A stretch of 64,000 nucleotides of DNA from the NCBI RefSeq assembly GCF_003334405.1, contig NZ_QOWM01000009.1; one strand, 5' to 3'. This document shows positions 22,661 to 30,334 of the stretch, in pieces. This DNA is from Escherichia coli (GTDB taxonomy: Bacteria > Pseudomonadota > Gammaproteobacteria > Enterobacterales > Enterobacteriaceae). Under the pieces are notes generated by a model, which was not told where the DNA came from, searched no databases, and saw only the letters and a list, made by a program, of their open reading frames with translations. The first letter of the stretch is position 1, and each line of letters opens with the position of its first letter. A program made the translations under genes and the position numbers.

Positions 22661-22778
22661 ATCCTCATTTGCAATAATCCGAAAAAATGTGAAGTGCCTC
22701 GCCGTTTCCACATCTCGCTGTTGCGCCTTATCTTCAAATCCCTGAAGATATAAATATTCAATTTACTGAAAATTTATT

Positions 22779-23684
22779 ATGCGTCGAACGTTTATCAAAA
22801 AAGAAGGCGTCGTCATCACGACGCTGGCCCGTTATTTGTTGGGTGAAAAGTGCGGTAATCGATTGAAAACCATAGATGAGCTGGCAAATGAATGCCGTTC
22901 ATCCGTTGGCCTGACGCAGGCCGCGTTGAAAACGCTGGAATCAAGCGGAGCGATACGGATTGAACGCCGTGGGCGCAATGGCAGTTATCTGGTCGAGATG
23001 GATAACAAAGCATTGCTGACTCATGTGGATATCAACAACGTGGTATGTGCAATGCCCTTGCCCTATACCCGTTTGTACGAAGGCCTGGCGAGCGGATTGA
23101 AAGCCCAGTTTGATGGCATTCCTTTTTACTATGCGCACATGCGTGGCGCGGATATTCGCGTGGAGTGTCTGCTTAATGGCGTGTATGACATGGCGGTGGT
23201 TTCGCGACTAGCGGCGGAAAGTTATCTCACGCAAAAAGGCTTATGCCTCGCGCTGGAGTTGGGGCCGCACACCTACGTTGGCGAGCACCAGTTGATTTGC
23301 CGTAAAGGCGAGTCCGCAAACGTGAAGCGCGTGGGGCTGGATAACCGTTCGGCGGATCAGAAAATCATGACCGATGTTTTTTTTGGCGGTAGTGATGTGG
23401 AACGAGTCGATCTCTCTTATCACGAGAGTTTACAACGCATTGTTAAAGGCGATGTCGATGCGGTGATCTGGAACGTGGTGGCGGAAAACGAACTGACCAT
23501 GCTGGGATTAGAGGCGACGCCGCTCACAGACGATCCGCGATTTTTACAGGCCACCGAAGCCGTGGTCCTGACGCGAGTCGATGATTACCCAATGCAACAA
23601 CTGCTGCGTGCCGTTGTAGATAAACACGCCCTGCTCGCCCATCAACAACGGGTAGTGAGTGGGGAACAGGAACCGAGTTATTAA
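22779..23684 (+). CDS. yhfZ: Putative transcriptional regulator of the yhf cluster
   Basis: 301-aa ORF, first gene of the co-directional yhfZ-yhfS block; regulator role is inferred from remembered annotation, not from a motif I can point to. Confidence 0.78.
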   Translation: MRRTFIKKEGVVITTLARYLLGEKCGNRLKTIDELANECRSSVGLTQAALKTLESSGAIRIERRGRNGSYLVEMDNKALLTHVDINNVVCAMPLPYTRLYEGLASGLKAQFDGIPFYYAHMRGADIRVECLLNGVYDMAVVSRLAAESYLTQKGLCLALELGPHTYVGEHQLICRKGESANVKRVGLDNRSADQKIMTDVFFGGSDVERVDLSYHESLQRIVKGDVDAVIWNVVAENELTMLGLEATPLTDDPRFLQATEAVVLTRVDDYPMQQLLRAVVDKHALLAHQQRVVSGEQEPSY

Positions 23685-23700
23685 ACGAAAGGCATCTGAT

Positions 23701-24063
23701 ATGGAAACCAGACTCAACCTGCTTTGCGAGGCAGGCGTTATTGATAAGGACATCTGCAAAGGCATGATGCAGGTCGTCAACGTACTGGAAACAGAGTGCC
23801 ATCTGCCGGTGCGCAGTGAGCAAGGAACGATGGCGATGACACATATGGCGAGTGCACTGATGCGCAGTCGCCGTGGTGAAGAAATAGAGCCGCTGGATAA
23901 CGAGTTGCTGGCAGAACTGGCGCAATCCAGCCACTGGCAAGCCGTTGTGCAATTGCATCAGGTGTTGTTGAAGGAATTCGCACTGGAAGTTAACCCGTGT
24001 GAAGAAGGCTATTTGCTGGCCAACCTTTATGGATTATGGATGGCTGCTAACGAAGAGGTTTGA
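23701..24063 (+). CDS. yhfY: Small PRD-like regulatory protein
   Basis: 120 aa from ATG at 23701 (METRLNLLCEAG..); ORF track begins 14 codons upstream. Confidence 0.72.
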   Translation: METRLNLLCEAGVIDKDICKGMMQVVNVLETECHLPVRSEQGTMAMTHMASALMRSRRGEEIEPLDNELLAELAQSSHWQAVVQLHQVLLKEFALEVNPCEEGYLLANLYGLWMAANEEV

Positions 24064-24141
24064 AGCTCCCGACAAATCCACGTCGCACAACCTAAATATT
24101 CAAAAAAATGAATATTTAAGGAACAGAAACGAGGCAACAAG

Positions 24142-25305
24142 ATGTTTGTAGAAGCATTGAAACGCCAGAACCCGGCGCTGATTTCCGCCGCACTAAGCCT
24201 GTGGCAGCAGGGCAAGATCGCCCCGGACAGCTGGGTGATCGACGTGGATCAGATACTGGAAAACGGTAAGCGGCTGATTGAGACGGCGCGGCTTTACGGC
24301 ATTGAACTGTATCTGATGACCAAGCAGTTTGGTCGTAATCCGTGGCTGGCGGAAAAATTGCTGGCATTAGGCTACAGCGGCATTGTGGCGGTGGATTACA
24401 AAGAGGCGCGAGTCATGCGCCGCGCTGGTTTGCCTGTGGCGCATCAGGGGCATCTGGTACAAATCCCTTGTCATCAGGTTGCTGACGCCGTTGAACAGGG
24501 CACCGACGTCATCACCGTGTTTACTCTCGACAAAGCGCGGGAAGTTTCTGCGGCGGCGGTGAAGGCCGGGCGAATCCAGTCTGTGCTGCTTAAAGTTTAT
24601 AGCGACGATGATTTTCTTTATCCGGGCCAGGAGAGCGGTTTTGCCCTCAAGGTGTTGCCGGAGATTGTCGCCGAAATCCAGAATCTGCCAGGGCTGCATT
24701 TAGCCGGACTTACCCATTTCCCTTGCCTGCTTTGGGATGAGGCTGTCGGAAAAGTTTTGCCGACACCGAATCTTCACACGCTGATACAGGCACGGGATCA
24801 ACTGGCGAAATCTGGTATTGCACTTGAGCAACTGAACGCGCCTTCAGCGACCAGCTGCACTTCGCTGCCATTACTGGCGCAATACGGTGTGACTCATGCC
24901 GAACCCGGTCATGCGCTGACGGGCACTATTCCGGCAAACCAGCAGGGCGATCAGCCTGAACGTATCGCGATGCTCTGGTTAAGTGAAATCTCCCATCATT
25001 TCCGTGGCGACAGCTACTGCTACGGCGGCGGTTACTATCGTCGTGGTCATGCGCAACATGCGTTGGTGTTTACGCCAGAAAATCAAAAGATTACTGAAAC
25101 CAATCTCAAAACTGTGGATGACAGCAGTATCGACTACACCCTGCCGCTGGCAGGCGAGTTTCCGGTAAGCAGTGCAGTGGTGCTCTGTTTTCGCACGCAG
25201 ATTTTTGTCACCCGTAGCGATGTGGTGCTGGTGTCCGGTATTCATCGTGGCGAACCGGAAATCGTCGGTCGTTATGACAGTCTTGGAAACTCTCTGGGGG
25301 CGTAA
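24142..25305 (+). CDS. yhfX: Putative PLP-dependent amino-acid racemase-like enzyme
   Basis: 387-aa ORF; stop overlaps the yhfW start (TAATG). Confidence 0.8.
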
Positions 25306-29097: not shown

Positions 29098-30183
29098 ATG
29101 AAGACGTTTCCTCTGCAAAGCCTGACGATTATTGAGGCGCAGCAAAAGCAGTTTGCGCTGGTGGATAGCATTTGTCGCCATTTCCCCGGCAGCGAGTTTC
29201 TTACTGGCGGTGATTTAGGCTTAACGCCAGGACTGAATCAACCGCGCGTTACCCAGCGTGTGGAACAGGTGCTGGCTGATGCATTTCACGCACAGGCTGC
29301 GGCGCTGGTGCAGGGCGCGGGGACTGGCGCGATTCGCGCCGGGCTGGCGGCTTTGCTCAAACCGGGGCAGCGTCTTCTGGTGCATGACGCGCCTGTTTAC
29401 CCGACGACACGGGTTATTATTGAGCAGATGGGGCTGACGCTTATTACTGTTGATTTCAATGACCTGTCGGCACTGAAGCAGGTCGTCGACGAGCAACAAC
29501 CGGATGCGGCGCTGGTGCAGCATACGCGCCAGCAGCCGCAGGACAGCTACGTGCTGGCAGATGTGCTGGCAACGTTGCGCGCGGCAGGTGTTCCAGCGTT
29601 AACCGATGACAACTATGCGGTGATGAAGGTGGCTCGAATCGGCTGTGAATGCGGCGCGAATGTCTCGACATTTTCCTGCTTCAAGCTATTTGGGCCAGAG
29701 GGTGTTGGTGCAGTGGTCGGCGATGCTGATGTTATCAACCGTATTCGCGCCACGCTTTACTCCGGCGGTAGCCAGATCCAGGGCGCACAGGCGCTGGAAG
29801 TATTGCGTGGTCTGGTGTTTGCGCCAGTGATGCACGCGGTGCAGGCAGGGGTATCTGAACGGTTGCTGGCTTTGCTTAACGGTGGTGCGGTGCCGGAAGT
29901 GAAAAGCGCGGTGATTGCTAATGCGCAGTCGAAGGTGTTGATTGTCGAGTTTCATCAGCCGATTGCCGCCAGAGTGCTGGAAGAGGCGCAAAAGCGCGGT
30001 GCCTTGCCTTACCCGGTGGGTGCAGAGTCGAAATATGAAATCCCGCCGCTCTTTTATCGCCTTTCCGGAACGTTTCGCCAGGCGAATCCACAATCAGAAC
30101 ATTGTGCGATTCGCATTAACCCGAATCGCAGCGGTGAAGAGACGGTGCTGCGGATTTTGCGTGAGAGTATTGCCAGTATTTAA
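29098..30183 (+). CDS. yhfS: Putative PLP-dependent enzyme (aminotransferase / C-S lyase-like)
   Basis: 361 aa; candidate PLP-lysine context STFSCFKLFGPEG; last gene of the cluster. Confidence 0.8.
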   Translation: MKTFPLQSLTIIEAQQKQFALVDSICRHFPGSEFLTGGDLGLTPGLNQPRVTQRVEQVLADAFHAQAAALVQGAGTGAIRAGLAALLKPGQRLLVHDAPVYPTTRVIIEQMGLTLITVDFNDLSALKQVVDEQQPDAALVQHTRQQPQDSYVLADVLATLRAAGVPALTDDNYAVMKVARIGCECGANVSTFSCFKLFGPEGVGAVVGDADVINRIRATLYSGGSQIQGAQALEVLRGLVFAPVMHAVQAGVSERLLALLNGGAVPEVKSAVIANAQSKVLIVEFHQPIAARVLEEAQKRGALPYPVGAESKYEIPPLFYRLSGTFRQANPQSEHCAIRINPNRSGEETVLRILRESIASI

Positions 30184-30222
30184 TGCTGGATAGCACCGTC
30201 AAGCTAAATTCCGTACTGAACG

Positions 30223-30263
30223 GTCCCCTCGCCCCTTTGGGGAGAGGGTTAGGGTGAGGGGAA
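30223..30263. repeat. GC-rich extragenic palindromic element between yhfS and frlR
   Basis: GTCCCCTCGCCCCTTTGGGGAGAGGGTTAGGGTGAGGGGAAC with nested CCCCTC / GAGGGG complementarity. Confidence 0.4.
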
Positions 30264-30285
30264 CGTACGGGATGTAAAATTCAAC

Positions 30286-30331
30286 GCGCCAGCATCGCCG
30301 GATGCGATGCTGGCGCATCTTATCCGGCCTA
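30286..30331. repeat. REP-like element with 13-bp perfect hairpin (likely convergent terminator)
   Basis: GCGCCAGCATCGC-cggat-GCGATGCTGGCGC (30286-30316) followed by ATCTTATCCGGCCTAC, the REP 3' consensus. Confidence 0.65.
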
Positions 30332-30334
30332 CGG

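Follow-up and report, generated by a model that had tools for sequence, protein, structure and literature searches.

Within a 64,000-nucleotide stretch of Escherichia coli DNA (contig NZ_QOWM01000009.1; hereafter the window), we analysed the eight-gene cluster yhfZ-yhfY-yhfX-yhfW-php-yhfU-yhfT-yhfS, in which php is the gene also called yhfV. We found this cluster to be a genuine, intact gene set that is maintained by selection. The explanation that we favour, tentatively and at somewhat less than even odds, is that it forms one functional module for the uptake and breakdown (or salvage) of an oxidized or phosphorylated amino sugar, namely a 2-amino-2-deoxy-aldonate, either as such or in its N-acetyl or lactone form. 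Gene content and its conservation, purifying selection, protein folds and catalytic motifs were observed directly, as were the conserved operator sites and the genes that recur nearby; what we infer is the substrate class, the reaction order and which component binds what. The original prediction, made from the sequence of the window, had proposed a pathway for a modified amino acid or amino sugar. We keep this as the best substrate class.

Conservation and selection in E. coli

The 7.5-kb cluster (positions 22700-30250 of the window) was compared with 5426 complete E. coli genomes, presence being defined as coverage of at least 80%. The cluster was intact in 5060 genomes (93%), whereas 342 contained no match at all. 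In a sample of the genomes compared, frequent frameshifts were not seen. We also compared the genes with those of a divergent Escherichia allele, Citrobacter and Buttiauxella. The ratio of nonsynonymous to synonymous substitution rates (dN/dS) was 0.00-0.11 for all eight genes, with yhfU and yhfT the most constrained. Judged by these ratios, all eight genes are under strong purifying selection. Degeneration in most strains had been named in advance as a possible weak point of the prediction, and these two results dispose of it.

Some strains deviate from this picture. E. coli strain A30, from a horse, kept only a 114-bp remnant of the start of the query. Deeply divergent allele classes also exist within the species, as 1066 genomes matched the cluster at only 90-95% identity. 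One such "E. coli" allele (L012) differed from the window by a synonymous divergence (dS) of 0.14-0.51, with proteins 91-100% identical. This dS exceeds typical core-gene divergence and hints at old alleles or at recombination from other Escherichia clades.

Gene content across genomes

Gene contexts were collected for distant YhfT representatives and for the best 80 of 285 species-genome loci carrying the YhfU motif (mostly gamma-proteobacteria), and the eight window proteins were mapped onto all fetched loci. In the following, genes are given by their last letter, with P for php. In Enterobacteriaceae (Escherichia, Citrobacter, Buttiauxella, Cedecea, Trabulsiella, Lelliottia and others), the order was Z-Y-X-W-P-U-T-S, following rpe-gph-trpS. 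The same order in so many genera indicates that the arrangement did not arise by chance. Most Yersinia loci carried Z-Y-X-P-U-T, without W or S (L043-L048, L050, L052 and L056); Y. nurmii (L051) and Ewingella (L049) keep yhfW, and Y. aldovae (L050) is also without yhfX. Vibrionaceae carried Z-Y-P-U-T-X-W without S, and a metagenome-assembled genome (MAG) of Aerococcaceae carried U-T-P-S-Z-(PRD)-X-W. Other MAGs and metagenome contigs showed Y-U-T-P-X-W or Y-P-U-T-X-W, and some genomes held partial sets (Z-P-U-T, U-T-X-W, or U-T alone).

Two pairs, U-T and X-W, stayed together wherever both members were detected. Six genes were kept together, with their order shuffled, down to 25-29% YhfT identity. 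By this comparison, the conserved core consists of the PRD protein (YhfY), Php, YhfU, YhfT, YhfX and YhfW. The gene yhfS was found only in Enterobacteriaceae loci and the Aerococcaceae MAG, being missing in Vibrionaceae, Yersinia and most distant loci. The gene yhfZ was not seen in three distant core-bearing contigs, all of them short. On this distribution, YhfS and YhfZ appear to be accessory, with the reservation for YhfZ that the distant contigs are short. Thus, the eight genes described in the original prediction stand as a gene cluster, but the conserved unit is the six-gene core.

Enzymes encoded by the cluster

The products predicted for all eight genes were confirmed by Pfam or NCBIfam profile matches. 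YhfX (24142-25305, + strand) is a fold-type-III (alanine-racemase-like) pyridoxal 5'-phosphate (PLP) enzyme with Pfam matches to Ala_racemase_N (E 6.6e-22) and YhfX-like_C, and PDB entry 4KBX is titled "uncharacterized protein YhfX". Its single NCBIfam match was the ornithine racemase Orr, at 28.1 bits against a cut-off of 480, which places YhfX outside that family. YhfX and Orr have only the fold-type-III PLP barrel in common.

YhfW (25305-26531, + strand) is a phosphopentomutase-like Mn-metalloenzyme of the alkaline-phosphatase superfamily (PRK12383, "phosphopentomutase"). It scored 741.9 bits against its own model, NF009049 (cut-off 254), and stayed below the DeoB cut-offs (183.9 bits against 256 for NF003766; 145.8 bits against 341.2 for TIGR01696). 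In an alignment with the Bacillus cereus phosphopentomutase 3M8W, the motifs VIDSFG, DT..GH, D..GH, ADHGNDP and HHTRE all matched, while the cap region (residues about 100-230) aligned weakly and has diverged. We take these five motifs to have the metal-ligand and nucleophile roles described in the structure papers on phosphopentomutase.

Php (26528-27406, + strand), a phosphotriesterase-homology protein, is a binuclear-metal hydrolase of the amidohydrolase superfamily and belongs to the PTE family. It matched NF007373 at 655 bits and has its HxH motif at H12/H14. The binuclear-metal structures 1BF6 (reportedly published in 1998) and 4LEF name it only "phosphotriesterase homology protein". Php is not an equivalog of OPH or of phospho-furanose lactonase (100.5 bits against 500 for NF041153; 102.4 bits against 630 for NF045706). 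Overexpression of php rescues a pdxB deletion by an unidentified route (PMC3010111). PTER, the closest animal (mammalian) relative of Php, is an N-acetyltaurine hydrolase and not a lactonase, and it hydrolyses both N-acetyl-taurine and N-acetyl-beta-alanine (PMC11374699). Given this activity of its relative, Php may act on a lactone, an ester or an amide.

YhfS (29098-30183, + strand) is a small fold-type-I PLP enzyme with Pfam matches to YhfS-like_C, Aminotran_1_2 and Cys_Met_Meta_PP, and a marginal match (E 1e-3) to the SelA-related MJ0158 family. Its PDB entry, 4J8L, is titled "uncharacterized". From their matched motifs and solved folds, YhfW, Php, YhfX and YhfS look like active enzymes.

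The YhfU-YhfT pair

YhfU (27417-27770, + strand; DUF2620) is a small RpiB-like alpha/beta protein. An invariant residue, Cys52, forms part of its P-loop-like loop, G-A-C-x-T-G-x-G. Both the fold and the catalytic cysteine loop are of the RpiB/LacAB type, although YhfU misses the Pfam threshold for LacAB_rpiB (E 0.16 over 30 residues). Compared with the RpiB/LacAB isomerases, YhfU is about 30 residues shorter and has a membrane-protein partner. YhfU starts with MKKIGVAG and is 117 residues long, and it has neither the N-terminal Asp-His nor the C-terminal phosphate-binding arginines of the RpiB active site. A second comparison is with the phospho-cysteine of the enzyme IIB (EIIB) component of the phosphotransferase system (PTS); the conserved cysteine of YhfU sits in an RpiB topology.

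YhfT (27782-29086, + strand; PF10797) is a polytopic membrane protein and a presumed permease. It has no solved structural relative, and its best structural matches were elevator-type carriers, including the enzyme IIC (EIIC) component ChbC. By NCBIfam profiles, no enzyme IIA (EIIA) component is encoded in the E. coli cluster.

YhfU was almost always paired with the membrane protein. In two loci (L003:9586-11341 and L009:1432-3107), yhfU-yhfT stood alone among housekeeping genes, without the enzymes or regulators. Pairs found alone imply that the pair can work as an independent unit. YhfU-YhfT might even be the founding case of a new transporter class, which we regard as a long shot: a permease that depends on a cysteine protein of RpiB fold, has a free-standing PRD protein as its connection to the PTS, and supplies a novel route by which gamma-proteobacteria of the gut and the sea use amino sugars in oxidized or phosphorylated form. 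If so, the pair would represent a new family of PTS permeases, or else a carrier that traps its substrate chemically by isomerization.

Regulators and the predicted operator

YhfZ (22779-23684, + strand) is a regulator with a winged helix-turn-helix (wHTH) domain and a periplasmic-binding-protein (PBP)-like sensor domain (YhfZ_C). It scored 373.6 bits against NF041241 (cut-off 260), and its N-terminal domain matched Pfam HTH_41 (E 1e-18). The family profile reached the wHTH domains of GntR, FadR and CodY, and gave a weak match to amino-acid-binding PBPs (4I62, E 0.0026). PDB entry 2OZZ covers YhfZ residues 74-301 and is titled "hypothetical" or "uncharacterized". YhfZ therefore combines a GntR-type wHTH with a PBP-like C-terminal domain, a type that is not known among the classical GntR effector domains (FadR, HutC, MocR and YtrA).

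YhfY (23701-24063, + strand) is a stand-alone PRD domain. The Pfam PRD match (E 9e-4) accounts for the whole 120-aa protein, and no RNA- or DNA-binding output domain is attached. Its score against TIGR03582 (EF_0829 family) was 28.4 bits, below the cut-off of 69. His48, in the motif T-H-x-A-x-x-x-R, corresponds to the first canonical PRD histidine and was invariant across 14 diverse orthologues; the second was retained by no more than two sequences, L006 and L090, which are distant and Firmicute-like. YhfY thus has the PRD fold and the conserved phosphorylatable histidine of a PRD regulator. We know of PRD domains only as PTS-phosphorylated modules.

The palindrome TTCA-N6-TGAA occurs four times in the window, against 1.26 expected, and three of the four sites fall in the two non-coding stretches of the cluster. 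The predicted YhfZ operators O1 (ATCTTCAAATCCCTGAAGAT, 22730-22749) and O2 (ATATTCAATTTACTGAAAAT, 22754-22773) lie upstream of yhfZ with their centres 24 bp apart, and O2 ends 5 nt before the yhfZ ATG. The predicted operator O3 (ATATTCAAAAAAATGAATAT, 24096-24115), with perfect 9-bp arms, lies in the 78-nt gap between yhfY and yhfX. The fourth palindrome (TTCACCCTGGTGAA, 48894-48907) is about 19 kb downstream and has a G+C-rich spacer unlike the A+T-rich spacers of the yhf sites.

The O1/O2 pair was conserved in Enterobacteriaceae, and the site upstream of yhfZ was found in Escherichia, Citrobacter, Trabulsiella, Buttiauxella, Cedecea, Vibrio and Photobacterium. Of 71 fetched loci encoding YhfZ, 58 had at least one palindrome within 150 nt upstream of the gene. 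Altogether, 83 of the 173 palindromes in the fetched loci fell in 0.8% of the sequence, a count taken over loci that are related and not independent. O3 was nearly unchanged in the yhfY-yhfX gap of Escherichia, Citrobacter, Trabulsiella, Pluralibacter and one Enterobacter locus. We therefore predict that ATnTTCA-N6-TGAAnAT is the YhfZ box, in which case YhfZ would control its own promoter and yhfX-yhfS.

Gene junctions and transcriptional organization

Gene calls were taken from the open reading frame listing together with a 100%-identical annotated E. coli record covering 22000-31000 of the stretch. Over this part, the window agreed at 100% identity with several complete genomes. The annotated order is aroK-aroB-damX-dam-rpe-gph-trpS, then the yhfZ-yhfS genes, then the convergent genes frlR-frlD-frlC-frlB-frlA. 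All eight yhf genes are co-directional, as had been predicted, and occupy 22779-30183 on the + strand. From yhfZ to yhfS, the junctions are +16, +78, -1 (TAATG), -4 (ATGA), +10, +11 and +11 nt. The gaps or overlaps of 0-16 nt that had been described thus apply to six of the seven junctions, the exception being the 78 nt between yhfY and yhfX. The five junctions after yhfX, each of 11 nt or less or overlapping, suggest that yhfX to yhfS are coupled, and yhfW appears to be translationally coupled to both yhfX and php.

The 78-nt gap with its operator-like palindrome leaves room for a second promoter. Since the conserved palindrome in this gap is of the same type as the pair ahead of yhfZ, the cluster probably has two points of control, and it may have two transcription units. 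In one published operon table, the operon entry comprises php-yhfSTUWX alone. A consensus scan found no convincing sigma-70 promoter for yhfZ or yhfX. Eleven terminator-like sites were found inside the cluster against 9.1 expected, which is no excess.

Both boundaries of the cluster were located where they had been proposed. Upstream, trpS ends at 22489 and its intrinsic terminator (GAAACCGGGGAAACCCGGTTTTTTTA, 22636-22662, + strand) consists of a 9-bp stem with five G-C pairs, a 4-nt loop and a T-run. Between the trpS stop codon and the terminator lies a repetitive extragenic palindromic (REP) element (22517-22553, - strand; Rfam naRNA4, REP-derived, 38.2 bits, E 4e-4). Downstream, a further REP element (about 30270-30333), with naRNA4 matches on both strands, forms a boundary common to yhfS and the convergent frlR (30335-31066, - strand). 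In an Rfam scan of the region, only these REP-derived naRNA4 matches at the flanks were found, and no riboswitch or leader. A G+C-rich imperfect palindrome (cccctcgcccctttggggagagggttagggtgagggg, 30215-30262) lies after the stop codon of yhfS and before the downstream REP element; it presumably resembles the "box C"-type interspersed repeats of E. coli.

Several candidate control elements were set aside. Riboswitch-prediction entries merely name php-yhfSTUWX as an upstream neighbour, and their candidate windows lie 5.7-12.5 kb away, near ppiA. The bacterial interspersed mosaic element "attenuator" reported upstream of yhfZ (PMC2965389) is the REP element after trpS and is not specific to the cluster. 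A CRP-like TGTGA half-site upstream of yhfZ has the wrong spacing.

Neighbouring genes

Lac/chitobiose-family PTS genes adjoined the cluster in 10 loci, including the distant metagenome contig L008. In Photobacterium profundum SS9 and P. frigidiphilum (L092/L093), a super-cluster comprises P-U-T-X-W, a protein with a CBM5/12 chitin-binding module, a small CPT-like kinase, a DUF7916 protein, PTS IIA-IIC-IIB and a divergent Z-P-U-T. Here, two php-yhfU-yhfT copies flank the PTS, and the CBM5/12 protein sits between them. This protein has 730-770 aa and no recognized catalytic domain. A 604-aa CBM5/12-family protein gave no NCBIfam or PHROGs match, and the 295-aa DUF7916 protein gave no NCBIfam, PHROGs or PDB sequence match. 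The nagB gene of Vibrio comitans shares 4 nt with yhfW, and a sulfatase and its maturase are encoded upstream. Cof-type sugar phosphatases directly followed the cluster in two unrelated lineages, and an amidase-like gene was present in the Aerococcaceae locus. The PTS, chitin-binding, NagB and Cof neighbours point to an (oxidized or phosphorylated) amino sugar or an amino-aldonate.

In a MAG contig of a sporeformer (L005:1068-3765), a YhfT homologue with 36% identity stands without yhfU and is directly followed by an Orn/Lys/Arg decarboxylase (PF01276).

The fructoselysine (frl) genes are convergent to the cluster in this window, as the original prediction had pointed out. The functional weight placed on this neighbourhood did not hold up. 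Only two fetched E. coli loci (L001 and L014) had frl adjoining the cluster; in other Escherichia, yhfS is directly followed by yhfL without frl, and no frl was nearby in any other genus examined. Being limited to some E. coli strains, the adjacency is best regarded as incidental. By NCBIfam profiles, the cluster contains no kinase or deglycase family and has no families in common with frlABCD.

Proposed function and alternatives

In the pathway that we favour, YhfT would move the substrate through the inner membrane together with YhfU as an obligate cytoplasmic partner. With its essential-looking cysteine, YhfU might trap or isomerize the incoming molecule or relay a phosphoryl group. Php would cleave a lactone, ester or N-acyl bond, and YhfX would epimerize or deaminate the amino-bearing carbon. 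YhfW, coupled to YhfX in translation, may shift or remove a phosphate, and in Enterobacteriaceae YhfS may add a second PLP step (an elimination or transamination). YhfZ would bind all three ATnTTCA-N6-TGAAnAT palindromes, of which two overlie the promoter region of yhfZ and the third precedes yhfX, and let go of them once the substrate or an intermediate occupies its amino-acid-binding-protein-like domain. YhfY, via its invariant phosphorylatable histidine, may link the system to the PTS. Amino-aldonates are chemically alpha-amino acids, and such a substrate would fit the amino-acid-binding-like sensor of YhfZ.

Several points weigh against this proposal. The link between these proteins and a substrate is an inferential one, not drawn from biochemistry or genetics, and the binding of YhfZ to the palindromes is predicted from sequence. 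The family-level match of YhfX (Orr) and the decarboxylase in L005, the one gene context among those read to suggest a basic amino acid or polyamine, suit a plain basic amino acid better. We know of no obvious role for a phosphomutase in known amino-aldonate pathways. Most Yersinia loci are without yhfW, so the YhfW step must be dispensable or replaced there. Neither a kinase nor an EIIA is encoded in the E. coli cluster, which leaves the source of any phosphate unexplained. In addition, the 78-nt gap contains no convincing sigma-70 promoter by the consensus scan, and the PTS, NagB, CBM5/12 and Cof phosphatase neighbours are each lineage-specific, none of them being found in E. coli.

A plain or lightly modified basic amino acid (D- or L-ornithine, lysine, lactams, or hydroxylated or phosphorylated forms) seems to us an unlikely substrate, though one to be taken seriously. 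YhfT would then import it, YhfX would racemize it, YhfS would carry out a transamination or elimination, and Php would open a lactam or remove an N-acyl group. The NCBIfam match of YhfX to Orr fits such a route, as do the weak match of the YhfZ sensor to amino-acid-binding proteins, the decarboxylase directly after YhfT in L005 and the activity of PTER on N-acetyl-taurine and N-acetyl-beta-alanine. However, the Orr match reaches 28 bits against a cut-off of 480, and a basic amino acid leaves the YhfX-coupled phosphomutase, the RpiB-like YhfU and the PRD protein unexplained and the recurring PTS, NagB, Cof-phosphatase and chitin-binding neighbours unaccounted for. A different idea, compatible with the amino-sugar module, concerns transport: YhfU-YhfT could be a novel phosphotransferase-type group translocator, with YhfU as the phospho-cysteine carrier and YhfT as the membrane component. 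The product would be phosphorylated, YhfU would phosphorylate the PRD sensor YhfY when no substrate is present, and what reaches the enzymes would be a phospho-sugar or phospho-acid. The invariant Cys52 in its P-loop-like loop, the elevator-type matches of YhfT (EIIC ChbC among them) and the small PRD protein with its canonical histidine, found beside the core wherever adjoining sequence was available, all agree with this. So do the phosphate-handling enzymes (mutase, phospho-lactonase relative and Cof phosphatases) and the Lac-family PTS IIA/IIB/IIC genes adjacent to the cluster in Vibrionaceae and L008. We nevertheless consider such a translocator rather improbable, as the E. coli cluster is without an EIIA and U-T pairs also occur alone among housekeeping genes.

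The two other alternatives appear very remote. Catabolism of glycated (Amadori or Heyns) amino acids together with the frl operon would explain both why frlR-frlA lie directly downstream and convergent in the window and why the enzyme set combines sugar-phosphate with amino-acid chemistry. It is contradicted by the restriction of this adjacency to two fetched E. coli loci, with yhfL after yhfS in other Escherichia and no frl in any other genus, and by the cluster having no kinase or deglycase homologue. Equally hard to sustain is the notion of a cryptic, silent remnant without current function in E. coli. The papers found report no phenotype or inducing condition, the consensus scan gave no strong promoter, and 342 of the 5426 genomes are without the cluster. 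Yet every gene has a dN/dS of 0.00-0.11, 93% of complete genomes keep the cluster intact, and the operator sites are conserved across orders.

Comparison with known systems

Similar enzyme types occur in the ong cluster of Pseudoalteromonas prydzensis, which acts on N-acetyl-D-glucosaminate, a product of oxidative chitin cleavage (PMC9537276). This repressor-controlled cluster encodes an inner-membrane transporter, the amidohydrolase-superfamily deacetylase OngB and the fold-type-III PLP deaminase OngC, and its authors liken the pathway to D-amino-acid catabolism (PMC9537276). The yhf cluster resembles it in its predicted repressor control, its presumed dedicated inner-membrane transporter, and the combination of an amidohydrolase-superfamily hydrolase with a fold-type-III PLP enzyme; chitin-related neighbours of yhf in Photobacterium add to the likeness. 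The two systems differ in that OngB is of the D-aminoacylase type and Php of the PTE family, so that the likeness is one of enzyme type and not of shown orthology. Moreover, ong has an SSS transporter, a KDG kinase and RidA, where yhf has YhfT/YhfU, a phosphomutase and a PRD protein.

The dgaABCDEF pathway of Salmonella, reportedly described by Miller et al. in 2013, is said to take up D-glucosaminate by a phosphorylating PTS and to use a PLP enzyme to form a 2-keto-3-deoxy-phospho-aldonate. Its components are reportedly a mannose-family PTS, a SelA-like PLP lyase, a KDPG aldolase and a sigma-54 activator. The two systems would share an amino-aldonate substrate (proposed for yhf), a PLP step and a link to PTS regulation, whereas by NCBIfam profiles none of the PTS, lyase, aldolase and activator types of dga was detected in the yhf cluster.

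Among lactonases, the phospho-furanose lactonases of the Lmo2620/Bh0225 type (NF045706) belong to the same amidohydrolase family as Php, although Php falls far below their cut-off. These lactonases sit in PTS-linked sugar clusters, and by analogy the likeness suggests a phosphorylated lactone as the substrate. The EF_0829/AHA_3910 cassette (TIGR03576-03582) encodes a PLP enzyme and a small PRD protein alongside other small proteins, both soluble and membrane-bound. It has the small stand-alone PRD protein and the PLP enzyme in common with yhf, but YhfY is not a TIGR03582 member and the likeness otherwise lies in the description of the cassette. Finally, frlABCDR is a sugar-amino-acid utilization system with a GntR-type repressor and is a physical neighbour here, yet it has no families in common with yhf.

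Literature status and significance

In the full text of 7.7 million PMC papers and in bioRxiv, the literature covered here (subscription-only papers were outside the scope), no substrate or pathway was found for any of the eight genes, in agreement with the original prediction. That prediction had also spoken of an undescribed system, which is right for the function; the genes themselves have long been known and annotated. A January 2026 paper still lists yhfW as uncharacterized, and functional mentions are confined to the pdxB-suppressor work and incidental screen hits.

We rate the cluster as one of the repressor-controlled nutrient-utilization type, whose unusual part is the YhfU-YhfT transporter pair. 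It is an orphan in the best-studied bacterium, with structures of Php, the YhfZ C-terminal domain, YhfX and YhfS deposited without a function. To these, the present analysis adds strong selection, a core of six genes that is portable, and a predicted operator that stands out clearly. YhfT and YhfU may be a new type of transporter. With the substrate solved, most E. coli genomes and at least about 285 species genomes would have this cluster annotated, and the families PF10797, PF10941, YhfX-like and YhfS-like would gain a function. A nutrient niche could also come to light, for example oxidized amino sugars from chitin or host glycans.

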